Below are positions 1,932 to 64,000 of a stretch of DNA of 64,000 nucleotides, in pieces. The translations under genes were made by a program, and so were the position numbers. The stretch is from the IMG/VR virus record IMGVR_UViG_3300037483_001818, one strand, 5' to 3'. This DNA is from a virus. Its lineage: Duplodnaviria > Heunggongvirae > Uroviricota > Caudoviricetes. The notes below the pieces were generated by a model. That model did no database searches, was not told the origin of the DNA, and saw only the letters and a program-made list of their open reading frames with translations. How positions within the stretch are numbered: the first letter of the stretch is position 1; each line of letters opens with the position of its first letter.

Positions 1932-2423
1932 TCAGCCTAGCTTCCGAAGCATCGCAGCGGCTTCGTTCGCCCCTTCCTTCGTGCTGTAGCCGGTTCCATC
2001 TGCGTTGTAGATGCTTCCGCGGACGACGCGTCCGTTGCTGTTCACGGGCTGCCATCGAGAGCCGACCTTACGCACGGTGATCTTTGTGCGCGGTGTCTTC
2101 TTCGTGGCATGAGCACTCGGCGACGAGGGTTTTTTGCTGGACCGTGGTGAGCGTCGGATCAGGTAGCCCGTCAGATTCTCGTCGAACTCGGCTTCGTCCG
2201 CGATGCCGCGCTGCTCGTCGTCGGCGAATGCGAGAGCGCTGGAAGCAACCTCGTCGTACGCTTTGGGCGAGTCGTATGCGACTCCAGGTCCGAAGCCCGC
2301 GGGGGCGGGATTCACGATGCCGCGCCACAGGAGCTTGCCGCCGCTGCTCACTGCCGTGCGGTAGTGGTTCTTGTCGTCGTACACGACGCTGATCTGGAGG
2401 TTACCCGAGTATCGCTTCGCCAT
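1932..2423 (-). CDS. Two-domain basic protein with AHATKK linker (candidate virion core/cargo)
   Basis: Two compact domains separated by the S/K-rich linker SSKKPSSPSAHATKK. Confidence 0.65.
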   Translation of the reverse strand: MAKRYSGNLQISVVYDDKNHYRTAVSSGGKLLWRGIVNPAPAGFGPGVAYDSPKAYDEVASSALAFADDEQRGIADEAEFDENLTGYLIRRSPRSSKKPSSPSAHATKKTPRTKITVRKVGSRWQPVNSNGRVVRGSIYNADGTGYSTKEGANEAAAMLRKLG

Positions 2424-3749: not shown

Positions 3750-4520
3750 TCATGAAGCTGTGCGGGATTCCATCGTAGCGGGTCGAACTGCTGGACGATC
3801 GACTCCTTCGTTCGCCCATGCAACTGCTTCGTTGAGGCGGCGCCAGATTTCATCTGGGCTGAGGTCCTCGCAGCCGACGAAGCGCGCGAGAAGCGCTTCT
3901 TGCGCGGCGTGATATGCCTGGGCATACGCCAGTGCGTAGACGTCGTCACCTACGAGTAATGAAATGCCTGGCGGCAGTGGCAATGAAATGCCCACTGGGG
4001 GCGGCAATGGAAAGTCGGCCAGCTCGCGGTAGCGGTTGAGCCAACGTAGGCCCTCAGCGAAGGTACGCGTCACTCGTCGAGATTCCTGTTCGACCGGTTC
4101 GGTCATTGCGGGACCGCGACCAATGACAGCTCCGTAGAAATGGGCACCTTCTGGGCGTTGTCCTGTGTAGGTCACGACGAACTCGAGCGATCTGTTGCAG
4201 GGCGCGATGTCGAGAGCCAGCCCGTATATTGGAACGTCCTTCGTCGAAAACTGTTCGATGACCTGTGAGACGCCGTCGACCACGATCTCGTGCACGAACC
4301 AATCCTCGCCGTAAGGTCCCTGAAGAAAGAGACGCTCGGCATGAAATGGGGTCGGGGTTTGGGTTTCGCTGGGTGTTGCGTAGCAGCGCACTCGTTCGTT
4401 GTGCTTGATCGAAGGTGTTGGCCTGGTGTTGTCCTCTTTGTCCGAGCACACTCGCATCATCTCTCGACTGCCTGGGATGGACGGCTTGTCGGAGGCTTCG
4501 ATCGTATTCTCTTCAGGCAT
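3750..4520 (-). CDS. Beta-sandwich (jelly-roll-like) domain protein, paralog A
   Basis: FHAERLFL...WFVHEIVVDGVSQ...LDIAPCNRSLEFVVTY aligns by eye with 43476-44198 and 58084-58566; TAGTCT-N6-ATG. Confidence 0.55.
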   Translation of the reverse strand: MPEENTIEASDKPSIPGSREMMRVCSDKEDNTRPTPSIKHNERVRCYATPSETQTPTPFHAERLFLQGPYGEDWFVHEIVVDGVSQVIEQFSTKDVPIYGLALDIAPCNRSLEFVVTYTGQRPEGAHFYGAVIGRGPAMTEPVEQESRRVTRTFAEGLRWLNRYRELADFPLPPPVGISLPLPPGISLLVGDDVYALAYAQAYHAAQEALLARFVGCEDLSPDEIWRRLNEAVAWANEGVDRPAVRPATMESRTAS

Positions 4521-4569
4521 GGGAGCAGACTACCGCGTGATGCATTCTCCTGGTCCGCGGTTCGCGGAA

Positions 4570-5049
4570 TCACCGCGTACGCTTGTCGCCGCGAAGCGCG
4601 TCGGCGATCTCGCGGTCGAGTTGCTTCTTTGACTTCGATGCCTTCGTCGGTACAGCAACGATTCGCTCGGCGATCTTGATGTCGGCTTGCGAGGTTGGCA
4701 GCCGGTCATCCACCACGTCATGAAGACCCCAGAACTTCTTGCGGGGTCGCGAGAGTGCGTCGCCGGGCTCGCGCACGAGGCGCCCGATCCGGATCGATTC
4801 GTCGACCACGATGTGGTCAGCACCGCCGTACGAACCAGTTTCCTGCGCGGTATACGCGTGCGCGATGTGCCAGCGAAAAGGTAGCTGGGCGAGCAGCAAG
4901 CGCAGGTATTGCTCTCGTTTGACGAGCAGCTCGTCGTAGAGCCGTTCGTTCTCCGCGCGCGCGGCGGGTTCGTAGAGACCGCGTGCGAGCTTCCACGCGC
5001 GGCGGCGATCCTTTTCCAGCTGTTCGTAGTCGCCGACCGCCACGTTCAA
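4570..5049 (-). CDS. Hypothetical protein with C-terminal KSKKQLDREIADAL tag
   Basis: Tag shared with ORFs at 6964, 8183 and 10733; TTGA-coupled start. Confidence 0.65.
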   Translation of the reverse strand: MNVAVGDYEQLEKDRRRAWKLARGLYEPAARAENERLYDELLVKREQYLRLLLAQLPFRWHIAHAYTAQETGSYGGADHIVVDESIRIGRLVREPGDALSRPRKKFWGLHDVVDDRLPTSQADIKIAERIVAVPTKASKSKKQLDREIADALRGDKRTR

Positions 5050-5489
5050 TCCAGCTCGAGGAGCGCGAAGCGTTTCACGGAGTCGTCGGAATCATGGTCA
5101 CGGTGTTGAGGCCCCGACGCCCCGGAGCTGGCCAACCGAGCTGCCTCACCGCGCAGCCGTGCGATTTCGTCGGTCAAGCGCTGGTTGTCCCTTCGAAGTC
5201 GCGCGCATTCCTCGACCAGTTCAAGCGCGGTCTGTGGCTCGGTCGCCGTCGATGCGGGAAGGGCGAGCCTGGTCGGTCGCGCGGTCGTTTGCCGCGGGCC
5301 GGTGATCGTGACCTGGCTGTGCACGGCGACCACGTTGGTCACGGCTTCTCGCGCCCGTGGTTGACCGCGTTGTCCCTCCAGTACAAATCCCGTTGCGGGG
5401 GCATCGGAGGGTGGCCGGCGTCGCGCGGTGATACCGCAGACGGCCAACTGTCCGACGAGATCGGGGTTGAAGAAGACGTGAACTGTCAC
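5046..5489 (-). CDS. Coiled-coil protein ending RFALLELD
   Basis: Heptad segment CARLRRDNQRLTDEIARLR; TACGAT-N6-GTG upstream. Confidence 0.6.
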   Translation of the reverse strand: MTVHVFFNPDLVGQLAVCGITARRRPPSDAPATGFVLEGQRGQPRAREAVTNVVAVHSQVTITGPRQTTARPTRLALPASTATEPQTALELVEECARLRRDNQRLTDEIARLRGEAARLASSGASGPQHRDHDSDDSVKRFALLELD

Positions 5490-5542
5490 CGATCGATCGT
5501 AGCGCGGGACCGGCTACGAATGAACAACGATCCCGTGGCGAT

Positions 5543-5716
5543 CTACCCGTGCAGCTTCGCTACCGCAGACGGTGCGAGCGCGATGAGTAGCGCGAGGATC
5601 GAGGAGAACAGGAGCATCTCGCCGATGCGTACGCGCTTGTTGTTCGCGCCTTCCGCGGGCAAGAGGAACATGAGGAGGCCGGCGATCAGGGCGACGAAGA
5701 GGAGATAGGATGCCAT
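5543..5716 (-). CDS. Small two-TM membrane protein (holin-like topology)
   Basis: Two hydrophobic helices joined by a basic loop; TTGAAC-N18-TACGAT-N6-ATG. Confidence 0.55.
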   Translation of the reverse strand: MASYLLFVALIAGLLMFLLPAEGANNKRVRIGEMLLFSSILALLIALAPSAVAKLHG

Positions 5717-5768
5717 GGCTAGATCGTAGGCCGCAGATCGATCGCGGTTCAAGGACGACCTTGGATGT

Positions 5769-6155
5769 ATGCTGCGGCACGTGCCCGTTCGCTACGTCGC
5801 GGTGATCATCGAAGATCTGCAAGGACGTGTGCTCCTTCTCCTACGTGGGCCTACGGCCCCGTTGATGCCGAACCGATGGAACTTGCCCGGCGGCAAGATC
5901 GAGTCCGGCGAGTCGACGGTGGAAGCTGCGATGCGCGAGACGCTTGAGGAGACGGCCCTTCGCGTATTCGCGCTCTCGTCTGTCGCGCGAATCGGCGATC
6001 TCGTGGTGTTCCACGCGGACGATTGGGCGGGTCGCGTGCGCCTCGTCGATCGCGAGCACACACGTGCGACGTGGGTACCTAAGGAGATCGCGTGGACGTG
6101 GGATCTTATCTCGCCGCAGGGTGAGGTATTGCGGCGTTTCGTTGGTAGTAGCTAG
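5769..6155 (+). CDS. Nudix hydrolase
   Basis: Nudix box G-KIESG-E-STVEAAM-RETLEETAL. Confidence 0.92.
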   Translation: MLRHVPVRYVAVIIEDLQGRVLLLLRGPTAPLMPNRWNLPGGKIESGESTVEAAMRETLEETALRVFALSSVARIGDLVVFHADDWAGRVRLVDREHTRATWVPKEIAWTWDLISPQGEVLRRFVGSS

Positions 6156-6185
6156 GCCGCCGTCGAGCCATCGAGCCGAGGTCGT

Positions 6186-6506
6186 TCAGTATCGCGCGGC
6201 AGCGCGTACGCGCATCAGATCTCCCTCTTCCAGCTTGAGGCCCTTCTTCGTGTAGTACGCGTCCCACGCACGATTTTGCTCGGCCTGGGACATACCTGGT
6301 GTGATGCCAACTTCGCGGGCGCGTGCACGACCCTCGCGTTCCAGATCCTGCATTTCTTTGACAATCGGGCGCGTAAGCAGGTAGGCGGCTCCGCCGATGA
6401 CGGCCGCGCCGATCGCGATCTTCCACCACGGTGTTGCCGTTGTCGGTTGATCTGCACCGACATGGGCATAGTGGCCGTTTGGTCCGTAATTTCCGCGTTC
6501 GTTCAT
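6186..6506 (-). CDS. Single-pass membrane protein
   Basis: WWKIAIGAAVIGGAAYLL TM helix; TATAGT-N6-ATG. Confidence 0.6.
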   Translation of the reverse strand: MNERGNYGPNGHYAHVGADQPTTATPWWKIAIGAAVIGGAAYLLTRPIVKEMQDLEREGRARAREVGITPGMSQAEQNRAWDAYYTKKGLKLEEGDLMRVRAAARY

Positions 6507-6513
6507 GTGATGA

Positions 6514-6714
6514 CTATACGCGTGCGACGCTCGTTGCGTCGAGCCAGCCACTCACGCCGCGCGGGCTCCGTAGGTGAACGCGCCAGTACGGGTTGCCGCG
6601 CGTCCCGAGGTTCTTGATCTCATCGACGATCAAGGTTTCGTCCTTGTAGAACGGAGGCACGCGGTAGTCGGATACGACGACGTCACCTGGCGACAGCGGT
6701 GCTCCACGAGGCAT
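6514..6714 (-). CDS. Small SH3/KOW-like beta protein
   Basis: LSPGDVVV...LIVDEI...YWRVHL...GWLDATSV pattern; GGAGG RBS. Confidence 0.55.
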   Translation of the reverse strand: MPRGAPLSPGDVVVSDYRVPPFYKDETLIVDEIKNLGTRGNPYWRVHLRSPRGVSGWLDATSVARV

Positions 6715-6963
6715 GGCTTAGCCTCCCATAGACAGTTTCTTGAGCCCAGTGCTTGCGATCGGCTACGCTCGCTTCGTGAAGCGAAACCTGATCGCCGTTC
6801 CGATGGGGGCATGCCCATACAACCCACGCATCATTCCGACCAGCACGGTCGTCATGCTGAGCATCGACACGGGACCGCTGGGCGTCTGTCAGGCACTGCC
6901 GTGCTTCGCCGGCCGGCGCCGCCGCCGTCGGTGCCGGTAGCACGGATCTGATAGGCTCAGGTC

Positions 6964-7377
6964 GTGGCCAAGTCCTCTGCCCAACTCGACCGCGAGATCG
7001 CCCAGTCGCTCGGATTGCCGGATGTGGTCACGAAGAAGTGGCGGTCCAAGGTCGCGGCGTACAAACGTGCGATCGCCAAGCTGGAAGCGGGCTACAGCGA
7101 TGAGCTTTTCTACGCGGCAGCTCGCGCGCGTGACGCGCTCGACAAGGTGATCTACGAAGCGACGTCGCACATACCGTACGATCCGGCCAAGCCTGCGCAC
7201 CTGTCCGATGCGATCCAGGCGCTCGAGCGCGAGCGAAACGCGCTCGTGTCGAGCACATGGGAGCCGGCGAAGGAACGCGGTCGCGAGGCGAATCGGCGCT
7301 CTGGTGAAGAGGAGATCAAGCGTCTCCGCGAAGCCGAGCGCGAAGCTCGCCGCCCCTACGACTGGATGCGCCGATGA
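6964..7377 (+). CDS. Helical protein with N-terminal KSSAQLDREIAQSL tag
   Basis: Tag motif; TAGGCT-N6-GTG leaderless-type promoter. Confidence 0.7.
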   Translation: MAKSSAQLDREIAQSLGLPDVVTKKWRSKVAAYKRAIAKLEAGYSDELFYAAARARDALDKVIYEATSHIPYDPAKPAHLSDAIQALERERNALVSSTWEPAKERGREANRRSGEEEIKRLREAEREARRPYDWMRR

Positions 7378-7562
7378 AGTTTCGATCTGCGCTCATCCGT
7401 ATTCAGCGTGAGGCTCTCGCGCGCCTCGCGGCGAAGTTGCCGACGCGGCTCTTGGATGATGCACGTATCGCGATGACTGACGAGCTGGCTCGGCGGGGTT
7501 ACCACCTGATTCCTCGTTCACGACCGCAGGCGCGCAAGAAAAGCATGTTGGGGAGGCACTAG

Positions 7563-8183
7563 ATGGCCCGCAAGTACGGCAAAAAGGCTTCCGAGAAGAT
7601 CGGCAAAACGATGCACGAGTTCAAGCGCGGCAAGCTCAAGAGCGGTGGCTCGGGCAAGAAGGTCACGAGTCGCAAGCAGGCGATCGCGATCGGCATCTCG
7701 CAGGCAGCACGCGCGGGCTACAAGGTTCCGCCGCCGCCGCGTGGGCACGCGACGATGAGTGATGATGAGCGTGTTCGCGCGTATCTCAGCAACATGCGAC
7801 CGGGCTCTGAGATCGATGGGTGGGGTCTGGCACGCGCTCTCAAGATCGAGCCGATCGCAGCAAGTTATGCGCTCGCACGTGCGGAGAAGGCAGGGCTCGC
7901 TGTCACGGGTGATGGTCAGTGGTTCGGCCCGGCAAGTTCGGAGCGAGGGCGCGCACACGCGAAGATGCGGAGCTCTCCCGTTGTGTTGACGGGCAGCGTG
8001 ACCATGCCGACCGGCAAGAGCGCCGAGATCCACATCCATCATGGCAAAGGCGGCTATGACGGCGTGCTCGTGCTCGCTAACGGCGAGGAGTTGCCGATGT
8101 CCGTCGGCAAACCTTCCACCGCGGCTGAGGCGCTGCGCAACGCGAAGAAGTTCCTCGCGCAGGTCTATGGAAGGAGCAACTGA
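7563..8183 (+). CDS. Three-module basic protein: DUF6496-like N-terminus plus two domains joined by GHATM and AHAKM linkers
   Basis: N-terminus KYGKKASEKIGKTMHEFKRGKLKSGGSGKKVTSRKQAIAIG resembles DUF6496 small basic proteins (family recalled, not searched). Confidence 0.7.
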   Translation: MARKYGKKASEKIGKTMHEFKRGKLKSGGSGKKVTSRKQAIAIGISQAARAGYKVPPPPRGHATMSDDERVRAYLSNMRPGSEIDGWGLARALKIEPIAASYALARAEKAGLAVTGDGQWFGPASSERGRAHAKMRSSPVVLTGSVTMPTGKSAEIHIHHGKGGYDGVLVLANGEELPMSVGKPSTAAEALRNAKKFLAQVYGRSN

Positions 8184-8743
8184 TGGCGAAAAAGACGTCG
8201 CCCGCGCAGCTCGATCGCGAGATCGCCGAAGTCCTCGCGAAGAAGCCTTCGGACCAGTGGACCGTGCATGATCGCCTCGCGGTTATGACGCCTGCCCAGA
8301 AGAAGCGCGAGCTGAAGGACTTGCAGCAGGCCAGGGAGCGGACCTTTCGGGCTCTGGGATATGCCGGGAACACGCCCGATCAGGTGCGCAAGTATCACGA
8401 CGCGATCGCAGAGATCGACGCGAAGATGAAGCTGTTCGTTGGCAGCTCGCACGCGACGCGGCGGAGCCATTCCACCAAGGCGGCGAGCAACGGTCTCTTC
8501 GCTGTAGAGATCGATCGTTCCGAGTTCGACAGCGGTCGCGAGCTGCCGGACGGCGCGCGCTGGCGTCCTGATCGCGCGAAGCTCGCGGAAGACGAGCTGG
8601 CACGCGGTCGGTCCTATCGCCGTCCCAAGGATGCTCGCTACGCCGTGATCGAGTGGACAGGATTTCGTGGCGCGGTAGGCCGCCTGCTCGACTGGTTGGA
8701 AGGGGCGGCGGGTGTTACGCGCTACGCAGAGATCTTCGAGTAA
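8183..8743 (+). CDS. Two-domain protein with N-terminal SPAQLDREIAEVL tag and SHATRRSHSTK linker
   Basis: Carries both recurrent motifs; TGATG coupling. Confidence 0.7.
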   Translation: MAKKTSPAQLDREIAEVLAKKPSDQWTVHDRLAVMTPAQKKRELKDLQQARERTFRALGYAGNTPDQVRKYHDAIAEIDAKMKLFVGSSHATRRSHSTKAASNGLFAVEIDRSEFDSGRELPDGARWRPDRAKLAEDELARGRSYRRPKDARYAVIEWTGFRGAVGRLLDWLEGAAGVTRYAEIFE

Positions 8744-8757
8744 CGAGGGACATTTCA

Positions 8758-9426
8758 ATGAAGCAGCCACTCACGCATCTCGGCACGACGCCGTCGGGCA
8801 AGAAGGTCTTCCTCGAGAAGCTGCCGCACGAGTATCCGCGCTTCTCGAAGAGCGATCACTTGTACGCGGCAGTTCTCCATGGAGCGAACCGCACTCGTGG
8901 CGGAGCGGTCGCAGATCTGCATCGCTTGGCGGCCGGCGATCGTGATCGCGGCTCCAGATCTGGTCGCGCTGCACACGCGACGAAGAAGGACTTCGACTGG
9001 TCGTCGTTCACGGATGGGGCGGCGTTCGGGTTCTGGGCGAGCCCGTACGTGAGTGAAGTCGAGAACCTCGCCGAGGAATCACGGGAAGCGTATCGCGCGC
9101 TGTCTCCGGGCTCTGGCGGCAAGTGGGCTTCCGTGATGCCCAAGACGCCGCCCTCGGCGGAGGCAGCGGCGAAGAAGTTCACCAAGGCCGTGAAGGCTAA
9201 GCTCACCGATGCTCAGTTGAGCGAGCTCTCAGAGAAGTTTTCCGCACACGACGCGGGCTACTACGGTGCGATGCAGGCGCAAGGTGAGGGCGTTGGCTGG
9301 TTCGATGAAGGAGTTCGTCTCGATCCTCCGCGGGGGTTCGAATACGATCCGAAGATCCAAAACGCGGTCGCGAGCGCAATTGCCAAGGGTGCTCGCGAGG
9401 CTGGCGTCAAGCTGCCGCGGCGATAA
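8758..9426 (+). CDS. Two-domain protein with AHATKK linker
   Basis: GAGGGA RBS; linker RGSRSGRAAHATKK. Confidence 0.65.
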   Translation: MKQPLTHLGTTPSGKKVFLEKLPHEYPRFSKSDHLYAAVLHGANRTRGGAVADLHRLAAGDRDRGSRSGRAAHATKKDFDWSSFTDGAAFGFWASPYVSEVENLAEESREAYRALSPGSGGKWASVMPKTPPSAEAAAKKFTKAVKAKLTDAQLSELSEKFSAHDAGYYGAMQAQGEGVGWFDEGVRLDPPRGFEYDPKIQNAVASAIAKGAREAGVKLPRR

Positions 9427-9490
9427 GGCGCCTTCGTCTACAGCGCGTGCAGCGGGATCTGAGCTACTACGATCATAAGGAGAGCCGGCC

Positions 9491-10270
9491 ATGGCAGCAA
9501 AGAACCCCATCAACGACGTTCCGTTCGGGCAGGAACGTTCGCTCAAGGATCACCTTCAGCGCGCTGAATGGGAGCGCGATCAAGCGGCGCAACTGCGCGC
9601 GAAGAAGCAGCCTGTCGGGTACGAGCACATCGCTCAGGGGCATGAAGATGCGGCGCGCGCGTACGAGAAGCGGGTGAAGGATCTGGAGCGTGAAACGCGG
9701 GAAGGGCACGTCGCAGAGCGTCGGAAGCGCGATCCGGGCGCTTGGAGCTCGCGTGAGCAGCTCATCAACGTTGCACGCGTCGCGGCTGCTGCGGTGTTCG
9801 CGCCGCGCAAGGTCTCTCCGTCGGAGGTCGCGATCAAGAAGGCTCGCGAAGCAGCGTTCAAGGCGATCAAGCGGCACGATCCACTCTCGGGCACGTCGGA
9901 GCATCCCGTTGCGGCTTACGCGCACGGTATCGCCGCGCTCGCCGCTGAGGGGACAGAAGAGGCGCGGCAGCGCTGGGAGACGCAGCGCGCATCTGCGGGC
10001 AAGAGCCGACGCTCCTCGCACAGTACGATCGCTGTACCTGCAACGCGCAACTACGAGTACGTCGTCTACCCGGAGACGTCGCACCGCAACGCTGAACGTG
10101 CGGTGAAGGTTCCCACGCGTCGCGTCGGAGGCGCGGTGCGGCCCTACGATCTTACCGACGCCAAGCGCGTGGCCAAGGAGATGGGATCTCCCGCGTCGAT
10201 CTACAGCGTTAGCAAGGGTCGCTTCGTGGGCTACGTGCACCCGAGCGGTCGTTACGTGACCTTTCGCTGA
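9491..10270 (+). CDS. Multi-module basic protein with SSHSTI linker
   Basis: AAGGAG RBS; linkers REGHVAERRKR and GKSRRSSHSTIA. Confidence 0.65.
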   Translation: MAAKNPINDVPFGQERSLKDHLQRAEWERDQAAQLRAKKQPVGYEHIAQGHEDAARAYEKRVKDLERETREGHVAERRKRDPGAWSSREQLINVARVAAAAVFAPRKVSPSEVAIKKAREAAFKAIKRHDPLSGTSEHPVAAYAHGIAALAAEGTEEARQRWETQRASAGKSRRSSHSTIAVPATRNYEYVVYPETSHRNAERAVKVPTRRVGGAVRPYDLTDAKRVAKEMGSPASIYSVSKGRFVGYVHPSGRYVTFR

Positions 10271-10276
10271 GCGATC

Positions 10277-10369
10277 ATGTGGGTACGGCTCAACAAACGG
10301 GATCGATCCCTCGTGATCGGTATCGTGCTGCTGCTGGGCTCGCTGCTGATCTATACCCAGTCGCAGTAG
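10277..10369 (+). CDS. 30-aa single-TM microprotein
   Basis: MWVRLNKRDRSLVIGIVLLLGSLLIYTQSQ; below the length cutoff of the ORF track. Confidence 0.45.
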   Translation: MWVRLNKRDRSLVIGIVLLLGSLLIYTQSQ

Positions 10370-10388
10370 GTGCTGAGATTAAAGCTGG

Positions 10389-10733
10389 CTACGCATCCTC
10401 CAGCTCTTCAACTTCCCAGCGTTTGACGAGCGTGAGAGAGAAGACGTTGTTGTTCCGTCGGACCGCGCGCAAGACCTTATGGTGACCTGGCTCCGCCAGG
10501 CCGAAGCGCCAGTAGGCCGTTTCTTCGTCGATGGGATCGAAGCCGTACTTGTTCACGCAGCCCTTCCTCAACGTAGGATGTGCTCTCCAAAAGCTGATCA
10601 GTTCGCTGCGGGAATCGGCAGGGATTCGCAGCCCCTCGACGGGTTGAAGCTTGGACATTCGTCTCGCGTTCCGACTGCTCTTGAAGAGCGTCTCTGCGAT
10701 CTCCGCGTCGAGTTGGGCCGGGGTCTTAGCCAT
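10389..10733 (-). CDS. Protein with N-terminal KTPAQLDAEIAETL tag
   Basis: Tag motif; TAGAAT-N6-ATG. Confidence 0.7.
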   Translation of the reverse strand: MAKTPAQLDAEIAETLFKSSRNARRMSKLQPVEGLRIPADSRSELISFWRAHPTLRKGCVNKYGFDPIDEETAYWRFGLAEPGHHKVLRAVRRNNNVFSLTLVKRWEVEELEDA

Positions 10734-10866
10734 AGCCGGATTCTACAGGCGCCGTGAGGTCATTCGGCAATTCCGTACAGGGCGCAGCAAGCCGTGATGT
10801 GAGCACCACGAGCACGCGCTCTTGGCCTAAGATGCCTGCGCACAATTTCACAGAAAGGCCGATGAC

Positions 10867-11442
10867 ATGATGAAGCGAACGATGGCGTGGATGATTGTGG
10901 TGACGATGTTTGTTGCGTGCTCGAATGACCAGGCGCTCTCGTCCGATGACCAGGATCAAGGCCAGGATCAGGGCCTCCCCGAGGGCACTGCGGCGCTCAA
11001 GCGTGATGCCGCAGTTGACGCGCCCTTGTCGATGGATGCGTACGCGGGTGCGAATTCCATCGCATGCCCGAAGGCATCGAACGCGGCGTGGACATGCCAC
11101 CTTCCGCCGGACCACTGCTGCGTCGGCGGCTACGGCACCCCGGTGGTCGGTCAGTGCACGTCCGCGCTCTGCACGGCTCACCAGCTGGACTGCGATGGAC
11201 CGGAGGATTGCACGTCCGGTCAGAAGTGCTGGTCGTATCGGTATCATGATCCTGCACCCCTCGAGACGGCGCACTGGCACCTGATGTGCTCGGCGACAGC
11301 ACCGGGTGGCGAGCTGGACTGGGTGGTCTGCCATTTGAACGCCGACTGCGCGTCGGTTCCTGGCACGACCTGCAAACCCGTGCAATCGCCGTCGGTCGGC
11401 GCGTACGATCTGCCGATCCCGTACAACGTTTGTCACGCGTGA
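10867..11442 (+). CDS. Cys-rich lipoprotein
   Basis: Signal peptide with lipobox FVAC; many paired Cys including CDGPEDC; AGAAAGG RBS. Confidence 0.7.
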   Translation: MMKRTMAWMIVVTMFVACSNDQALSSDDQDQGQDQGLPEGTAALKRDAAVDAPLSMDAYAGANSIACPKASNAAWTCHLPPDHCCVGGYGTPVVGQCTSALCTAHQLDCDGPEDCTSGQKCWSYRYHDPAPLETAHWHLMCSATAPGGELDWVVCHLNADCASVPGTTCKPVQSPSVGAYDLPIPYNVCHA

Positions 11443-12134
11443 TCTAGGATCGCTCGCGCGAGCGTGAGCTTGTTCGGCGACAGATAGCTGCCGATGCTCT
11501 TGAGCCGGACCTTGTCGCGATCGGTGCGCCCCCAGTTTTCGAGATCGACGAAGGCGATCTTGCCGTCGTACGTGAACTGGACGTTCTTGCTGTTGGAGTC
11601 GAGGCCCGGAAGCGCCACCAGCACGCGGAGCAGTTCGCGCAGGACGTTGTCTGCGATGTCCTGGTAGCGGCGTTCGGACTCTTCGCGTCCAACGATGTCG
11701 ATGCGCTCGACGATGAGCACACGCGCTTTCTTGCCAAAGCTCTTGGGCAGCTCGTGGAGGTACTTTTGTGGCACGGAGACGTGCTGTAGGCCCTCGCGGC
11801 GGATGATCTCCGCGACACGCGCAGCGCCCTCGATGCGTGCGGCGTAGTTGGCGTTCTGCTCTTTTTTCGAGACGTCGTCCGCGTACTTTTTGAACAGGTA
11901 GCCAGGCGCTGATGGGTGGGCTGCGACCATGCACTCGGTGTCTTTCGCCGGATCGAGGATGTCAAAGCCCGCTCGCCGCCACGCACGTCGCTTGTCGAAC
12001 ATGTCGGGATCAACAAATAGGGCGGCGAGGTCGAGCGATTTCGGGTCGAAGATCACGCGCTCGACATTACGTGAGTGCTTGCGGACTAGCGATCGGGATC
12101 GATGCGTGTCCAGCCGATCCAACCTGATGGACAC
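11433..12134 (-). CDS. Minimal protein-kinase-like protein
   Basis: YLFKKY (beta3 Lys), LDSNSKNV (DxxxxN catalytic loop), IAFVDLE (DFG equivalent). Confidence 0.65.
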   Translation of the reverse strand: MSIRLDRLDTHRSRSLVRKHSRNVERVIFDPKSLDLAALFVDPDMFDKRRAWRRAGFDILDPAKDTECMVAAHPSAPGYLFKKYADDVSKKEQNANYAARIEGAARVAEIIRREGLQHVSVPQKYLHELPKSFGKKARVLIVERIDIVGREESERRYQDIADNVLRELLRVLVALPGLDSNSKNVQFTYDGKIAFVDLENWGRTDRDKVRLKSIGSYLSPNKLTLARAILDHA

Positions 12135-40852: not shown

Positions 40853-41158
40853 TCACGAGAGCTCCTCGGCGGCCTGCTTGGCGGTCATCGCGAGCCGGAT
40901 GCCGGCCTTGAGCGCACAGACGCGCGTCGCGATCGCGCACGACGACCTGCCGTGAGCAGTAGCAGCTGCCACGACTGTTGGATCTGACCAGATGATCGAT
41001 CGCGCCCCGGCGACGCGACGTAGAAGATCTCGATCTTCGGCCGACGTCCACGGTAGTCCGCGCCGCGTTCGGCCCTCTTCGCTCGGCGCCCACGACGGGC
41101 GGCTCATGGCCTGCGCCCAGCCGCGAACGTCGATCGTGATCTCGAACGGATTGGTCAT
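40853..41158 (-). CDS. Myb/SANT-like HTH protein
   Basis: RGLPWTSAEDRDLL...AHGRSSCAIATR. Confidence 0.55.
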   Translation of the reverse strand: MTNPFEITIDVRGWAQAMSRPSWAPSEEGRTRRGLPWTSAEDRDLLRRVAGARSIIWSDPTVVAAATAHGRSSCAIATRVCALKAGIRLAMTAKQAAEELS

Positions 41159-42966
41159 GTGCGCTCGAGATCGGCGTCCTTCGTGCCGAGGCGATTGGTG
41201 CGGGAGTTGATGCCTGCGAGGAACATCTTGGAGCGCTCGTAGGTCTCTTTCGCTGTTTCGATCTCGGCTCGAATGGCGATGTTGTTCAGGTGCAGGTCGA
41301 CGGATTCCAGGACGTCCTTTGGCTGCACGCTCATGTGCTCGCGGATCTTTCCGTGCAAGACGGCGCGGCGCACTCCGTTGAAGCTGCTCAGCTGGAACTG
41401 CTCTTTCTCGTCGAGGAACGCGAGGAGCTTCTCCGCGTGCCCGGGGTGATTGTCCACGAGCCACGTCATCTTCTCGCGCCAGACGTAATCGGCGACCTTT
41501 CGGATCGTGTCTCCGACCGCGCCTTCGAGCTTCTCGGCCGCGTCTGACCACGTCTGATCGGAGAAGTCCTCGGCAATGGGAAGAAAACCGACGAAGTGCT
41601 TCAAGAGCTTGATGCGCGCGGCCTGATCCAGCTCTCCGACGATCGCGACCTTGGAGAAGCGCCGGATCATTGGCATCGGGATCCGCTCCGGGTGGTTCGT
41701 CGCGGCCCATACGGCGATGTGGGGGTACTGGAGGATGCCGTCCATGAGCTGCTGGAACTCGGTCGTCAGGTTCGTCGCCCCGAAGCCACCACGCGCGTGG
41801 TCATCGTTGAGGATAGTGTCGACCTCGTCGATCAGGATGAAGACCTGCTTCTTGCTCGCCTTCTGGATGCGGAGTGCTTCCTCGAACAGCCGCTTCGGAT
41901 TCTTCTCAGCTTCGCCCTTCCAGCAGGTGAGGAAGTCGCTGGGCTGTGCGTAGATGCCAACGCTCTTCTTGTCGCCACCGACGGCGCGGAGCACCTCACT
42001 TTTGCCACAGCCCATTGGGCCGATGAGCAGGGCGTTGGCCTTGTCGGCGCTCTTCGACGGCGACGTTGCCAAGAACAGGTTGTGCCACTTGGCACTCTTC
42101 CGAACCTGCTCGATGAAGGTCTTGACGTGGTTGAAGCCGGAGCCCACGACGTCGTTGATGTCGACGATGGGTTTGATGCCGGGAATGACGGTGAGCTGGC
42201 CGGGGGCCTCGCCCGTGAACGGGTTCCCGTTCCCGATCTTGCAGACGTAGAAGCTGTTGACGTCTTGGTAGTAGACGTGCAGCTCGTGCTTGCGCCGCAA
42301 GATGTGTTCGATCAGGGCCTGTGTGGAGCAGCTCGGATCGTGGAGTCGATGCGCCACCTGGGCGATGGTCTCGTTGCGGAATTCGACCTCGAAGCGCTCC
42401 TCCGACGTGAGGAGCCCTGTCTTGTCTTTGTACGTGATGCCCTGCGGGTTCAAATCCTCCAAGAAGAGGAGCGCACGCTGGAACTCGGAATCGTCCAAGA
42501 GTCGAGGCTTCTTCGCGTCCACATCGAGGAGAGATCGAATCTTGTCGGCCGTGGGCGTCGCGAAGGTGGCGAGCTGCTCTGCGGTTGCCCAGAGGATGAG
42601 GAGATTCGTCTTGATGAACTCCAAGAGCCGGGTAGGCGTGCGGATGAACTCGCCGACGAGACCCTTCTTGATGGCGTCGGCGACAATCGTCGCCTTGCGA
42701 ACGGAGTAGGCACTTACCTCGTCAGGCTTCTTCCCGTCGGTGATTTCGCCGCTGGAGTCCACGTTCTCGTAGATCGAGATCGCGATGTCAGTCGTGACAG
42801 GATCGCGATGGATCTTGATTCCGTCCACCGTGTGCCGACGAAGGAGCGCGGCGTAGTATTCGTCGAGGAAGTCCACGACGCGCCTCCCTACGCTGATTAC
42901 CGCGGTCTTGATCTTCTCTGCGTTGAGAACGCCTTGGGTGAAGCGGTTGAGGGCGGCCCGGTTCAT
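41155..42966 (-). CDS. AAA ATPase (classic clade), C-terminal part of a split gene
   Basis: Walker A GPMGCGKS, Walker B VFILIDEVD, SRH AATNHPERI..MIRRF. Confidence 0.9.
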   Translation of the reverse strand: MNRAALNRFTQGVLNAEKIKTAVISVGRRVVDFLDEYYAALLRRHTVDGIKIHRDPVTTDIAISIYENVDSSGEITDGKKPDEVSAYSVRKATIVADAIKKGLVGEFIRTPTRLLEFIKTNLLILWATAEQLATFATPTADKIRSLLDVDAKKPRLLDDSEFQRALLFLEDLNPQGITYKDKTGLLTSEERFEVEFRNETIAQVAHRLHDPSCSTQALIEHILRRKHELHVYYQDVNSFYVCKIGNGNPFTGEAPGQLTVIPGIKPIVDINDVVGSGFNHVKTFIEQVRKSAKWHNLFLATSPSKSADKANALLIGPMGCGKSEVLRAVGGDKKSVGIYAQPSDFLTCWKGEAEKNPKRLFEEALRIQKASKKQVFILIDEVDTILNDDHARGGFGATNLTTEFQQLMDGILQYPHIAVWAATNHPERIPMPMIRRFSKVAIVGELDQAARIKLLKHFVGFLPIAEDFSDQTWSDAAEKLEGAVGDTIRKVADYVWREKMTWLVDNHPGHAEKLLAFLDEKEQFQLSSFNGVRRAVLHGKIREHMSVQPKDVLESVDLHLNNIAIRAEIETAKETYERSKMFLAGINSRTNRLGTKDADLERT

Positions 42967-43469
42967 CTCGAACTGCACGGAGAACGCCTGGAGAACGCCT
43001 GGAGCTGCTCGATCGACTCGGGAACCTCCCCGAGACGCTTGCCGATGACCAGGAACTTGCCAGGCCGTATGGCTTCTGCCGCCGCCATGAGCTCGTGGAA
43101 TGCGAGCTGGATGATCGACGCCACGTTGAAGATGACGTGCATGAACGTGCGACCGCTGACCGTGTGGCGCAGGTCCGTAAAGTCGTTGTCGGCCTCTTGA
43201 TCGGTCTTGAACGGGTTGTACTTCTGCCTGGTCGTGTTTCGGGCCTCGGAGAGGAGGCTGTTGTTGATCTGGGCGAGGTTTGCGACGCCATGGTCTGCTT
43301 GCTCGCAGAGGTCGCGCATGTCCTTGATCAGCTTGTCGAGGGCCACGAGTTCCTTCTTGTCGGAAGCGGACTTGGCGAGATCGATCAGGCTGTAGAACTT
43401 GAGGGGATTCAACTCCACCGCGGTGGGGATGATCGCTCGAGCAGTGCCGGGGTCGCGAAGATCGAACAT
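42963..43469 (-). CDS. N-terminal part of the split AAA ATPase gene
   Basis: AAGGA RBS; joins the ATPase frame if one 11-bp repeat unit at 42979-43000 is removed. Confidence 0.7.
   Translation of the reverse strand: MFDLRDPGTARAIIPTAVELNPLKFYSLIDLAKSASDKKELVALDKLIKDMRDLCEQADHGVANLAQINNSLLSEARNTTRQKYNPFKTDQEADNDFTDLRHTVSGRTFMHVIFNVASIIQLAFHELMAAAEAIRPGKFLVIGKRLGEVPESIEQLQAFSRRSPCSSR
42979..43004. repeat. 11-bp tandem duplication GGAGAACGCCT x2 (+GGAG) causing a frameshift
   Basis: Read directly from the sequence. Confidence 0.92.
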
Positions 43470-43475
43470 GCGAGC

Positions 43476-44198
43476 TTATTCCTTTGGGTCCGTGCTTGGC
43501 GTTGAACGAGAAACCGTCGACGATTCCCCTCGAAAGGTTGCTTCCCATTTGCCGCTCGGTAGCATGGCGTGGGCGATAGCCTTCGCTCCACGCGGCTTAC
43601 GAAAGTCGTCAGCCCAGCGCTGATCCCGTGCGGTATCGGCCGCGGCCACCGGCAGATCGCTTGCCTCGCACACGACAACGCCGTGCAGTTCTACCGGCGT
43701 CGCTTTGGTCGGTGGACGATCGTGGGGACACTCCACCTCAAGATCGATCCAACGATTCCCAGGGCAGACCAGATACGGCAGTTCACCGTATGGGCGTGCA
43801 ACACCGTCGATGGTTACCGTGATCACGCGCCACGCAGTGCCGTCCGGCTCTTTCACATGCACAGCAGTCGGGCGTACGCTGCGCGTCGGCGACACTGAAA
43901 ACAGCATCTTCACGTCGACCGCGCGCGCGTGCAATGGGATGATCTCGCACTTCAGTTGGGAACGCCCAAGCGCACCAGCCTCACTTGAGGCGTCATGTTC
44001 CTTGAGCCATTCGACAAAGGCGCGCGTACATCCTTCGCACAGTCTTCCCCGTGGCTGTTGATCCGTGTCCGTTTTGAGCCCCGATGCATTCACGCTCAAA
44101 CGTGCCGTGTAGAAGTACAGCTCGTTGCGAGGGGTGGCCGTGAGCGGCTGGTCCGCTTCGCACCGAAGGCACGGCGTAGGTTTATCTTCGCGGGTCAC
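43476..44198 (-). CDS. Zn-ribbon plus jelly-roll-like beta-sandwich protein, paralog C
   Basis: VRPTAVHVKEPDGTAWRVITVTIDGVAR is colinear with paralog A (P, G, W, V, DGV conserved). Confidence 0.55.
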   Translation of the reverse strand: MTREDKPTPCLRCEADQPLTATPRNELYFYTARLSVNASGLKTDTDQQPRGRLCEGCTRAFVEWLKEHDASSEAGALGRSQLKCEIIPLHARAVDVKMLFSVSPTRSVRPTAVHVKEPDGTAWRVITVTIDGVARPYGELPYLVCPGNRWIDLEVECPHDRPPTKATPVELHGVVVCEASDLPVAAADTARDQRWADDFRKPRGAKAIAHAMLPSGKWEATFRGESSTVSRSTPSTDPKE

Positions 44199-59949: not shown

Positions 59950-62750
59950 GATCCGCATGACCTTGACAGTTATGGGCAACGACCGGAGAAGGCGCGCTGA
60001 CAACAGCGCGCTGACCCCAAAAAAGGGCCGGCGGGCGAAAGCTCAGCAGGAAATGCGTACGCCGAGAGCAAGTAGCTGCCCACCTTTTCGCTGGATAACG
60101 TACTGCCTCTCTTGCGGCGGCTGCGTCTCAAGGAGAATCCCAACCTCAGCTCAAAGAAATGCAAGACCTTGTGACGAAGCTAGGAGCAGCAGGCAAATGA
60201 GAACTGAACAGCAGATGGCGACCATCATCACGCGATCAACGAAGGACCATCAGATCGAGATTGCGCGGAAGTGGGGAATTCCAGCCGCCGTGGTCGCGGG
60301 CGCGACCTTCGGGCTCGGCGTCACGATGATGTTCGAGAGTGGTCACACCGCGGAGCAGCTTGTCGAGATCGTCCGCCAGCTCGTAGCAGATCTGTCTGGT
60401 TCGCCGGGGGGAAGAAGCGCGTCGTGAGCGACTACACCGAAGGCGCCATGACGCGGGCAGAACTGAAGGAGCGGTGCCGTCGAGAGCTGTGGCAAGCGCT
60501 CGGTTTCCTGCCGGACCAGTTACCTTCCAGCGACTGGGACGCGGCGATCGCCGCCGTCAAACGGCAGACCCAGCAGCTCGCTGACGTGCGAAGGATCATC
60601 CGATGAAGTCGTCCAGCGACTCTCAGGTCGACTGCCGCGCATGCTCCGCTGGCCTCCCACTCACCTGGCACGTGCAGAGCAGGAAGACGATGCACCTTGC
60701 CCAGGGGCTCAGCGTGGTCTCGTGCAAGCGTATCGACGCACGTGAGCAGCGGGCGCGCGATATCGCGAACGATCGCGGGAACGAGGACCAGCGTGGTCGC
60801 TAACGTCTCCGATCACGAGCTGCACTGTCCGCACTGCCGGGCGGGAGAGCCGAGCGTCTGGGATGATGTTTTGTTCCACTACGCGCACCCTCATTCGGCC
60901 GACAACAAGCTGAAGTTCTGCCACGAGCCGTGGCGCGAGCGGTGCCGTCGCTGTAGTGCGCGTGTCGGCGCGTGCTCCTGCGGAGCGGAGGTCGTGGCGC
61001 GATGAAGGAGGTGCTCGGCCCACTGATCCGCGACGTCACGCTCCGCGAGATGCTGGAGGCGATGTCTAACTACCGGGATGACGAGGCGTTTCGGTGGTTC
61101 CAGACGTCAACGGACACCCTGCGTGTTTCGATGGGCCAGGCGCGGAGCGAGGTGCTGCGATGATCTCTGTGGAGGCTTCCAGCGCTGGCACGTGGACGTG
61201 TACCCAGTGTCTTGAGAAGCAAGATCGCGATGTCGTTATCGTGACAGCCGGTGAAACGACGATCGTGCTGTGTCAGGAGTGCGCCCCCAACGTGGCGAAC
61301 GCGATCCACAACAAGGAATGGCAGCTCAGGCATTCCGCGCTATTGCGCGACGAAGTAACTGCGAAGGAGGTGGCCTCATTCGCGACGTATCCTCTAGGCT
61401 TACTCCTCAACGAGTTGGTCGAGTGCACGGTGCGCTGGCACGTTGGTCCTCTCGATGCGGACGAGCGCCGGATCGCGACGGCATTACTCGAGCGTCTGGC
61501 CGCGCTGGGGCTCGCGCGCAAGGTGCATCGCGTTGGATGTGAGCTTTGGCCGAACTACCGGCTCTGTAAATGTCCCTGGGACGTACCCTCGTGAAGGGCG
61601 AGTGGGAGACGATCAGCGGTGTTCCGCTCGGACTGTCGCGGGACTACGAGCAGCTTCCTCGAACGGGACCCCTGCGTTCGATCCGCTGCCAGGGCTGCTC
61701 GCAGCTGTATGAAGACGTCGAGCGCTTGATGGCGGACGGCTGTCGTGTTCTGGCGATCATGTGCACGTCTTGTCGAGAAGAGGGGCGGCTGCGGTGGATC
61801 ACGGAGAAGATTGTCGCACTGCCGATGGCCACCGCGACCTATCGCAAGGGATCCCAATGAAGCGAGCGATCCACACGTCTCACCGCATGGGCAAGTCCTT
61901 CTCGGCCGTGCGAGCTCCTGCCGGCACGCCGCGGTTCTACGGCGTCCGCCAGTGCAAAGACTGTGGCGCCGAAGAGATCGCGCACGCGGCCGGCCAGTTC
62001 ACTGACAATGATCTCGTGAAACCATGTCATGCGAGGAGCAAAAAAATGACGGCGAGCAAGTCCGTGGTCATCGTCCGTGAAGCGCGTCGCGTCATGGCGC
62101 CCGCCTGCATCCGCTGCGTGCTCTGCAAGCTCTACGCGGGGGACAACGAGCGTCCTCCGGGAGTCGTCCACTTTGAGGTCAAGTACAACGGCGATGACGG
62201 ACTGCCGGAAAACCCGCTGTGCGCGCTCACGCGTCGCAAGTACATCTGCGATGAATGCATCGACACGATCAAGAGGTCGCCGTGAAGACGTGTCCCGCTT
62301 GCACACGCGATCCGGATCTTTCCGACGCACACGTCGCCCGCGTCGCGCGTCGGCTCTTTCGCGCGTTTGACGACGCGAATAAGGGCCGCGAGCCGCTGCA
62401 CGACTTCGACGTTATGGCCGAGTGCGAGTACGAGGGCCGGGCCGTCATCGACAACTGGCGCGCGCTTGCGCGCGAGTCGATCCGGCTCGGCGCGGTAGTA
62501 GCGCCCCACGAGGCGGACGGCCGATGAGCGAACCATTCGACGTCGACGCGTGGCAGAAGGACGTTATCCTGCACAACGTCGAGAAGGATCCGTACTACGC
62601 GCCGTACTGCATGCGCTGCACGGGCCTCGTGCGCATGCGAGTTGTAGAAAGGCACTACTGGCGGTGTCACTGCGGCGCGCAGTGCGACTACCGGCAGATC
62701 GAGGCCGCTCCGGATCACGCCTGTGTATGAGAGCGTGTAGGCTCGGCGCA

Positions 62751-64000
62751 ATGCTCAAAACAAAACTGTTGTTACTGCCTGTACTCCTACTGATCGGCTG
62801 TGGCCTCGTGCAGGAGGCTCAACCAAACGAAGCTGCGTACGAATCGCAGCTGGCAACGATCGTTACCTCCGCAGCTGGCGGCGGGACATCCGGTACGGGG
62901 GATCGAACGGCAACGATCACTCCGTCTACCAGCGAGCTGATCGTGGCCTTTGCCTCGTTCAGCGACAACACGCAGGCAGCTCCTGTGATGACCGACAACC
63001 GGGGCGGTACGTACGTCTTCGTTGCCCGTGCGAGCTGGAGTGGTGGGGGGAACAATTCGGCCGTGTACGTTCGGAACACGTTGACGACGACAAGATCGTC
63101 GCACGTGGTGAAGCTCGACACAGACACGAACTCTGCCGGCGAGATCGTGCTGATCAGCGTGGCAGGCATGGACAGGACGGGTGCCGTAGCGGTTCGGCAG
63201 GTTGGTATTTCATCCGATCAGGCGTCCTCGACAACGCCTGCGGTGACGTTCGGTGCGACTACCCTGACCTCGAGTGTCGTGCTGGGTGGGGTCGCCTCTG
63301 CCGATACTACAACCACTCCGCCAAGCGGGTGGACCGAGCGGAAGGACGCTTCGCAGGCAACACCAACCACAGCGCTGGAGGTTGCAACCAAGGACTCCGG
63401 CTATACGTCGTCCACGGTGACGTGGGGTGCCTCCCAGAGCACTGCATACGCTGCGATCGCGATCGAACTTGATACGAGCCCGCCGCCGAACGATCTCGGG
63501 TTCGCGCACGGCATCAACGTGCAGGGCTACGGCAGCGCCATCGGACCGGTCAAGATTACCCGGGACACGACGTCGGGTAACACGTTCTTGGTTGTCCTTG
63601 GTGGCAACCACTCCGATATCGACGATGCCCCAACGGATACGTACGGCAACACGTGGACCCTGGTCGGGATCGATGACTACACCGATTGGCCAGGGTACGG
63701 GAGCGCGGTGTGGGCGGCCACAAATGCCACGGGCGGCTCCTCGCACACGTTCAGCCAGACCGTGACGGCGTTCGACGAGCTGACGATGTTCCTCGTGGAG
63801 GTACCAGCGGGGGCAACGCCCACCGTCCTATCGTCGTTCACCCAGAAGGCCAACTCGGTCGGTGGGACGACGATGGCCAGTGCGAGCATCACGACGAGCG
63901 CGCCTGCTCGGTTCGTATCGTTCTGGTACGGCGCGGGCAACGCCGGTAGCGGCAATCATACGGCTGCCACCAACACAGGCACCGGCCTTGATGGGTACGG
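62751..64000 (+). CDS. Thr/Ser-rich lipoprotein with repeated beta-sandwich domains (runs off the window)
   Basis: MLKTKLLLLPVLLLIGC lipobox; frame open to the window end; TDNRGGTY/TDTYGNTW repeats; TAGGCT-N7-ATG. Confidence 0.75.
   Translation, partial: MLKTKLLLLPVLLLIGCGLVQEAQPNEAAYESQLATIVTSAAGGGTSGTGDRTATITPSTSELIVAFASFSDNTQAAPVMTDNRGGTYVFVARASWSGGGNNSAVYVRNTLTTTRSSHVVKLDTDTNSAGEIVLISVAGMDRTGAVAVRQVGISSDQASSTTPAVTFGATTLTSSVVLGGVASADTTTTPPSGWTERKDASQATPTTALEVATKDSGYTSSTVTWGASQSTAYAAIAIELDTSPPPNDLGFAHGINVQGYGSAIGPVKITRDTTSGNTFLVVLGGNHSDIDDAPTDTYGNTWTLVGIDDYTDWPGYGSAVWAATNATGGSSHTFSQTVTAFDELTMFLVEVPAGATPTVLSSFTQKANSVGGTTMASASITTSAPARFVSFWYGAGNAGSGNHTAATNTGTGLDGY

Follow-up and report, generated by a model that had tools for sequence, protein, structure and literature searches.

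A short helical peptide, hereafter the tag, was found on four otherwise dissimilar proteins encoded in a 64,000-nucleotide stretch of DNA (the window) from the Caudoviricetes record IMGVR_UViG_3300037483_001818, which is part of a 328,796-bp contig. The same tag recurs at the beginning, in the middle or at the end of many unrelated small proteins of uncultured huge phages, and in some of these proteins it is accompanied by a second short motif, H-(A/S)-(T/R/K), hereafter the junction, that lies at boundaries between protein modules. The tag may be a docking signal that loads its carriers into the virion, with the junction cut by a protease, a reading to which we assign a probability of roughly 40%. 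Virion loading is our best single guess because of the types of cargo domains, the small basic proteins and the arrays in which their genes occur.

A portable peptide tag on unrelated proteins

Four copies of (K/R)K(S/T)x-[A/K]QLDxEIAxxL are present in the window, at the positions and on the two strands where a first-pass annotation had placed them. A degenerate DNA pattern for QLDxEIA matched exactly these four sites in the 64 kb and had no match in each of 100 dinucleotide-preserving shuffles of the window, which places the motif above chance frequency, and a six-frame peptide scan of the window found no further copies. The three N-terminal tags begin 2-4 residues past the start codon, and KSKKQLDREIADAL ends 7 residues before the stop. 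The remainder of the four proteins had been described as dissimilar, and this held: BLASTP comparisons of the four tagged proteins and five neighbours, with the tag masked, gave no pair at E < 0.1. The copies vary synonymously (CAA/CAG, GAC/GAT, GCC/GCA), as had been noted in support of conservation of the peptide rather than the DNA. This argument is weak when taken alone, because the core DNA of the four tags is still about 85-90% identical in a genome of 63% G+C with strong codon bias; the relatives described below provide stronger evidence for conservation at the peptide level. A common DNA cassette around the four tags was ruled out, as the DNA flanks do not align.

The distribution of the tag was examined with a DNA pattern of AQLDREIAxxL against JGI/ENA metagenomes. 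At least 120 loci from soil and sediment carry the core pattern, several of them on contigs of 200-460 kb and often in multiple copies, and the tag is borne there by many unrelated families. Among the matches listed, 82 of 134 have K/R at position -4 together with S/T at position -3, a prefix that the search pattern did not require. When 185,579 prokaryote species, represented by a single genome apiece, were scanned, none of the 66 pattern matches had this prefix, and we read them as chance background. In IMG/VR, the search for relatives found none, and the single match of the DNA pattern, which lacks the prefix, was taken as chance; no relatives were found by blastn or tblastn among 50,697 GenBank phage records. 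None of these three collections contains the tag together with its prefix. Judged from where its sequence occurs, the tag is a mark of one clade of uncultured huge phages.

To define families, tagged proteins from the metagenome loci and the window were clustered by single linkage with the tag masked (E < 1e-4) after chance matches had been discarded. Among the matches listed, 130 tagged proteins fell into 73 families, 50 of them singletons, so that there are at least 73 families. The tagged proteins listed have a median length of 175 aa and a median isoelectric point (pI) of 9.6, with 78% above pI 8.5; the median pI of the open reading frames (ORFs) of the window is 6.8. About 60% of the 147 tag occurrences listed are N-terminal, about one third are internal and nine are C-terminal, so the placement at either terminus claimed earlier was found and extends to internal sites. 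Several families include both members with an N-terminal tag and members with an internal one, an extra module having been added upstream in the latter. Relatives of the 114-aa cargo protein, for example, have an N-terminal tag at locus L078 and an internal one at L095, and the domain of the 137-aa cargo protein occurs in a relative (L027) behind an internal tag preceded by HHATKK. About 75-90 of 120 DUF8336 homologues of the 159-aa protein (p4570) end with a linker, the tag and a basic tail, and about 30 of the 120 stop right after the domain and have no tag; a local Pfam search with the p4570 protein gave no match. The central domain of p9491, which has no tag, shares 65% identity with a relative that begins with one. 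The tagged proteins are thus not homologous along their whole length and families exist with and without the tag, which bears out its modularity.

Recognisable Pfam domains were found in about 10 of the 131 tagged proteins listed. These included a PARP-like ADP-ribosyltransferase (PARP, 31.8 bits, above the cut-off; ART-PolyVal, 26.5 bits, below it), a YgjP/WLM-like metallopeptidase (90.5 bits), a weakly matching ParB_N-like protein (20.4 bits, below the cut-off), and the domains DUF5661 and DUF6496. Three further tagged proteins have a DGxHR motif and no Pfam hit. At locus L005 (Ga0334722_10019048), nine consecutive small tagged genes lie within 5.9 kb. The L005 array, which resembles an array of effector cassettes, includes the PARP-like ADP-ribosyltransferase at 4211-4675 and the ParB_N-like protein at 5235-5684.

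The extended logo of the tag reads K/R(-5) K(-4) S/T(-3) P/A(-2) A(-1) Q L D R E I A x x L and continues into a stretch rich in Gly, Ser, Arg and Lys. The residues Q, L, D, E, I, A and L are near-invariant in the homology-collected sets, although variants such as AQLQREIDEVL, AQLNREIAEAL and AQFDREIAEAL were seen. A T4-like cleavage site after (I/L)xE, mentioned as an analogy in the first-pass annotation, is not a conserved feature of the tag: Glu follows EIA directly in only 71 of 131 tags (54%), and the same position can hold Ala, Gln, Lys, Asp or Val. The helix proposed earlier was recovered in AlphaFold2 models, and the S/T-P immediately before it is consistent with a helix N-cap. In the p8183 model (81-sequence alignment; mean predicted local distance difference test score, pLDDT, 81), the tag helix spans residues 7-20 (Pro7-Lys20), with Ser6 as N-cap and Pro7 as the first helix residue, and is followed by a helical module (28-90), a disordered linker (89-100, pLDDT < 50) and an alpha/beta module (101-186). 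In the model of P0028, a 255-aa fused relative (mean pLDDT 83), the DUF6496 module, a winged-helix-like module and a disordered linker (130-139) precede the tag, which is a lone helix at 143-154 and is followed by a second disordered linker (161-170) and a p8183-type alpha/beta module; both linkers flanking the tag have pLDDT < 50. The predicted template modelling scores were 0.38-0.45 for the two models, the 0.38 of P0028 being as expected for beads on a string. The tag is therefore predicted to be an isolated three-turn helix between disordered linkers.

Searches for known counterparts of the tag gave little. No Pfam or PHROG model covers the tag, the string QLDREIA was not found in the literature, and a Foldseek search of the PDB with the p8183 model found nothing at E <= 0.001, its C-terminal module being ferredoxin-like in appearance only. 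Among 177,635 PDB sequences, a profile of the tag matched only de novo coiled-coil barrel peptides with the heptad EIAxALK (E down to 1.6e-4); because these matches are designed coiled coils, they hint at helix-helix packing as the mode of binding. The RNA polymerase-binding domain of SutA (PF20661) was rejected as a relative: one tag variant reached 21.2 bits against a cut-off of 29.3, and nine other tags, including the four of the window, gave no match. Complex prediction for p7563, which carries DUF6496, with the first 40 residues of p8183 gave a score of 0.00 with partner pLDDT < 50, which counts neither for nor against an interaction.

A histidine-containing junction between modules

In the alignment of p8183 homologues, H-(A/S)-(T/R/K) is found in a basic linker at every module boundary, both behind DUF6496 and on either side of the tag. 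Of the 49 internal tags in the homology-collected set, 44 are preceded by H-[AS], its His lying eight residues ahead of the Gln; where the tag is N-terminal, this is the position at which the initiator Met is most often found. All five DUF6496 modules that are not N-terminal are preceded by HAT, HATK, HATKR or HAR, and the N-terminal ones start with MAR. Among the metagenome tags listed, the junction lies just upstream of 32 of the 52 internal or C-terminal copies. On the other side of the tag, H-[AS]-T occurs at most 45 residues downstream in 24 of 135 listed cases, compared with 2.0 +/- 1.4 in shuffles; its median distance from the tag is 9.5 residues, and its usual form is R-(S/A)-H-(A/S)-T.

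The window itself contains 16 occurrences of H[AS][TK] against 7.4 +/- 2.7 expected. Its linker-type junctions are concentrated in the four consecutive genes at 7563-10270, with one more in the ORF at 1932-2423; the latter copy is not followed by the tag helix, so the junction motif can stand alone. The stop codon of p7563 overlaps the start codon of p8183 by one base (TGATG), and the counterparts of these two proteins are fused in many relatives into one protein of 250-316 aa. Modules of the p7563 and p8183 type are freely shuffled among relatives.

Translated ribosome-binding sites were considered as a source of the junction linkers and ruled out, the 24 nt before the His codon being neither conserved nor similar to a Shine-Dalgarno sequence. 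The codons of the junction vary (CAC/CAT; GCG/GCA/GCC; ACG/ACC/ACA), and together with the lack of conservation in the upstream DNA this indicates selection on the junction peptide. Moreover, fusion of two genes by loss of a stop codon would leave a Met at the boundary, yet the His is near-constant, which argues that the junction is read by something. It is probably a processing site for a protease. A tagged protein at L071:9095-9775 (variant KSARQLQREVDVFL) contains a YgjP/WLM-like metallopeptidase with the motif HELVH, together with two HA(R/K)K junctions and a zinc ribbon. This protein is a candidate for the enzyme that cuts at the junction.

Genes and possible start signals around the tags

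The window contains roughly 110 ORFs, mostly small and nearly all without a Pfam family, the exceptions being NUDIX, HIT, AAA, DUF6496 and a Cys-rich domain. About a dozen of the ORFs match PHROG families of unknown function, and DUF6496 was not found in the literature. The features discussed here are collected in Table 1.

Table 1 Tag copies, junctions, putative start signals and neighbouring genes in the window
Feature	Position	Strand	Remarks
H-A-T-K-K-T-P junction	2103-2111	-	Inside ORF 1932-2423; no tag helix after it
DUF8336-family cargo protein (p4570), 159 aa	4570-5049	-	PF27025 in precomputed annotation of homologues
Tag copy KSKKQLDREIADAL	4594-4635	-	C-terminal in the 159-aa ORF 4570-5049; followed by basic tail RGDKRTR and stop
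TAGGCT, -10-like hexamer (putative)	6952-6957	+	6 nt before the start codon of 6964-7377; no Shine-Dalgarno sequence
Helical cargo protein, 137 aa	6964-7377	+	ORF; GTG start
Tag copy KSSAQLDREIAQSL	6970-7011	+	N-terminal, residues 3-16 of the 137-aa ORF 6964-7377
p7563, 206 aa	7563-8183	+	DUF6496 module, HAT junction, winged-helix-like module, HAK junction, beta module
H-A-T junction	7746-7754	+	In p7563, from the DUF6496 module to the next
H-A-K junction	7956-7964	+	In p7563
p8183, 186 aa	8183-8743	+	Tag, helical module, disordered HAT/HST linker, ferredoxin-like module
Tag copy TSPAQLDREIAEVL	8195-8236	+	N-terminal, residues 5-18 of the 186-aa ORF 8183-8743
Double junction H-A-T-R-R-S-H-S-T	8450-8476	+	In p8183, linker residues 89-100, pLDDT < 50
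Untagged two-module protein	8758-9426	+	H-A-T-K-K junction at 8974-8982
p9491, untagged, 259 aa	9491-10270	+	H-S-T junction at 10019-10027
Cargo protein, 114 aa	10389-10733	-	ORF
Tag copy KTPAQLDAEIAETL	10686-10727	-	N-terminal, residues 3-16 of the 114-aa ORF 10389-10733
TAGAAT, -10-like hexamer (putative)	10740-10745	-	6 nt before the ATG of 10389-10733

A hexamer similar to TAGGAT was found 5-8 nt before the ATG, with no Shine-Dalgarno sequence, in 19 of 54 N-terminally tagged genes (L005-L124). The same arrangement occurs in 5 of 109 window genes, two of which are tagged. The hexamer resembles the -10 box of leaderless mRNAs of the actinobacterial TAnnnT type, and TAGGCT at 6952-6957 is a possible promoter of a leaderless mRNA. 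The hexamer may point to co-regulation of the tagged genes and to an actinobacterial host. The protein P0075, in which DUF6496, the tag and a further domain are joined, lies on a 29-kb contig labelled as a Gaiellaceae metagenome-assembled genome at NCBI; possibly this is a phage contig that was binned together with its host, and an actinobacterial host would agree with that.

Three other ORFs of the window were noted. The ORF at 11433-12134 (minus strand; 233 aa) has a strong coding signal and adjoins the cluster of tagged genes; it contains D-S-N-S-K-N and later V-D-L-E, which by eye resemble the catalytic loop and metal-binding motif of a small protein kinase-like enzyme, and a Pfam search with it gave no match. 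At 41155-43548 (minus strand), a 797-aa protein has a single AAA+ module at residues 507-636, preceded by an N-terminal part of 470 residues without a known family, and is distantly FtsH-like by tblastn. The ORF at 62550-63998 (plus strand; at least 483 aa) continues past the end of the window and has no Pfam family, and its neighbours in the ESM Atlas are all hypothetical.

Possible destinations of the tagged proteins

We propose that the tag would act as a portable docking module, or address. It is composed of two lysines, a Ser/Thr-Pro cap and the three-turn helix [A/K]-Q-L-D-R-E-I-A-x-x-L, most of whose surface is taken up by conserved residues. Attached through flexible basic linkers to either end of a protein or within it, the tag would allow one common partner to bind many unrelated small basic proteins, and the most likely destination would be the inside of the assembling phage head. 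At the junction a protease would most likely cut, dividing short polyproteins and separating cargo and tag; a cut behind the His would leave an N-terminus of A/S-T/R/K-K, the same as that left by removal of Met in free-standing genes. The portability of the tag, its restriction to one clade, the isolated helix of the models, the arrangement of the junctions and the types of cargo were observed, and from them we infer the existence of the partner, its location in the prohead and the cutting at the junction. More specifically, tag and junction might together form a loading-and-processing code that has not been described before, in which the helix draws the carrier to the prohead or another hub and a clade-specific protease cutting after His releases the effectors; we regard this fuller version as tentative and somewhat doubtful. 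If it were true, the code would amount to disaggregated polyvalent proteins, and the phage would swap its injected effectors as cassettes.

Several known systems resemble parts of this arrangement. The internal proteins of phage T4 are diverse proteins that counter host defences and have a capsid-targeting sequence as their sole common element; this sequence, through which the ADP-ribosyltransferase Alt is also packed, brings proteins to the scaffolding core before being cut off itself (PMC3012670, PMC5694885). As with the targeting sequence of IPI-III and Alt, a short conserved peptide is found here on diverse, often basic and hypervariable small proteins that include an ADP-ribosyltransferase, and it is common to unrelated cargo, with the 73 families among the 130 tagged proteins listed. 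Unlike the T4 sequence, which is confined to the extreme N-terminus, measures 10-20 residues, ends in (L/I)-x-E and is cut there by gp21, the tag is also internal and C-terminal, does not conserve such an ending, and has its candidate cut site, H-A/S-T/R/K, some residues away. No gp21- or gp22-like genes were recognised in the window or among the neighbouring large proteins. Encapsulation peptides of microcompartment proteins (PduP, PduD, EutC) and the cargo-loading peptides of encapsulins are amphipathic helices of about 10-20 residues that dock on a shell protein. They share with the tag (here as predicted by AlphaFold2) a short terminal helix, a flexible linker and unrelated cargo; their sequence motif is unrelated and the context here is a phage, and no BMC-H/T or encapsulin shell Pfam families were found among 106 window proteins and 90 large proteins beside tags.

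The polyvalent proteins of phages and conjugative elements, which have a processing metallopeptidase, use ADP-ribosyltransferase, ParB-like and zincin peptidase domains as hubs; those of phages are presumed to enter the particle, to be injected and to be cleaved into their units (PMC5512222). The tagged proteins resemble them in the beads-on-a-string layout, the predicted proteolytic release and the proposed delivery with DNA, and may resemble them in effector types (ADP-ribosyltransferase, ParB-like and zincin-like peptidase), for which a handful of the 131 proteins speak and the ART-PolyVal and ParB_N scores lie below their cut-offs. Whereas polyvalent proteins are giant (2-15 domains), combine many effector domains and a peptidase in one polypeptide and are anchored by MuF or portal-associated domains, the proteins described here come mostly from small separate genes, with one cargo module in most and 2-4 in some, and each bears a short tag and a tripeptide junction that is conserved; neither MuF nor MPTase-PolyVal domains turned up among the tagged proteins listed. 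The head and ejection proteins of the giant phages phiKZ, 201phi2-1 and SPN3US have long N-terminal propeptides with several cleavage sites in the removed part (PMC5694885). There too, a segment that can be removed is believed to direct proteins to the prohead, but those propeptides measure 80-160 residues, lack conservation from one protein to the next and are cut at (S/A/G)-x-E, while a common motif of 15 residues is found here. The portable docking peptide as a kind is already known from T4, microcompartments and encapsulins; new here are the sequence of the tag, its independence of position and its coupling to a His-containing junction.

A number of observations weigh against loading into the virion. 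Across the window and some 0.7 Mb of related loci, no virion, scaffold, portal, capsid or protease genes were recognised in a search that covered 106 window ORFs (Pfam and PHROGs), 90 large ORFs beside tags in relatives, and the ESM Atlas; hence there is no candidate receptor. About 35-40% of the tags are internal or C-terminal, whereas the T4 type is strictly N-terminal, and the Glu that the T4-type cut at (L/I)xE calls for follows EIA in only 54%. Most cargo would keep its tag, because a downstream junction accompanies only 18% of tags, and the likeness in cargo types rests on few proteins, given that about 10 of 131 have a recognisable domain. In the window, the tagged genes are on both strands and among genes without a link to the virion, and basic proteins would suit nucleic acid-bound or host-directed early proteins equally well.

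The portability of the tag and its free helix would serve equally for a docking label directed to a hub outside the virion, such as a host machine (RNA polymerase, ribosome, nucleoid, chaperone or AAA+ unfoldase) or a phage-made compartment, or for a ubiquitin-like tagging system of the phage itself, in which the two lysines of the tag could be acceptor sites. We consider such a destination unlikely, although it agrees with the basic, often Arg/Lys-rich linkers and proteins, as in nucleic acid-associated proteins, with the DnaJ, Ro60, RNA ligase and KaiC/AAA_25 ATPase genes near tags in relatives, and with the 797-aa AAA+ protein of the window. No candidate hub was identified, the SutA match (21 bits) is sub-threshold and confined to a single variant with none in nine other tags, the role of the lysines as acceptors is pure conjecture, and the ADP-ribosyltransferase, ParB and peptidase cargo suits injected proteins at least as well. 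The spacing of junctions around internal tags, with the His at -8 and H-[AS]-T following the tag at a median distance of 9.5 residues, their position in disordered linkers and the tagged YgjP-like metallopeptidase in a relative could also indicate that the tag is not an address to a place but an exosite, like a leader peptide, for a protease that cuts the nearby H-(A/S)-(T/R/K). This is quite unlikely, as about 80% of N-terminal tags have no nearby junction and so nothing to cut, and p7563, the 8758-9426 protein and p9491 carry junctions in the same protein without a tag, from which it follows that cutting cannot depend on the tag in cis.

It is improbable that the tag helices bundle with each other or with a coiled-coil scaffold, forming one complex or condensate. 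A hydrophobic stripe at i, i+4 and i+8 (L3, I7, L11) with small Ala alongside would permit such self-association, and the EIAxALK coiled-coil barrel peptides are the only PDB profile matches; these matches span just 7-8 positions, though, and a helix of about 11-14 residues (1.5-2 heptads) is too short for a stable bundle alone, while the conserved polar Q, D and E suggest a specific partner over generic bundling. A tag without any partner, in which a start rich in Lys codons aids leaderless translation and is followed by a spacer helix, could account for the AAG AAG that is typical immediately past the start codon and for the -10 hexamer (19/54 N-terminally tagged genes; 5/109 window genes, two of them tagged), but this leaves the internal and C-terminal copies, the near-invariant Q, L, D, E, I, A and L and the S/T-P cap unexplained, making it very improbable. 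Barely credible is descent of all tagged proteins from a single fast-evolving family with the tag as its best-conserved segment: very remote homology is conceivable where most cargo regions have no recognisable family, but the tag is found at the N-terminus, inside and at the C-terminus, on folds as different as PARP-like ADP-ribosyltransferase, YgjP metallopeptidase, DUF6496, DUF8336, DUF5661 and a ferredoxin-like domain, and families occur with and without it, so that this explanation is contradicted by the tests run.

Whether read in the virion or elsewhere, a label of 15 residues bears on how giant phages choose, among hundreds of accessory proteins, those that are destined for the particle or a common site. 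The tag is a direct experimental handle for identifying its reader and a sequence-based means of listing candidate injected or anti-defence effectors in uncultured phages, and it is a possible tool to load foreign proteins. If the junction is cut, it would represent a rare instance of polyprotein processing in tailed phages.

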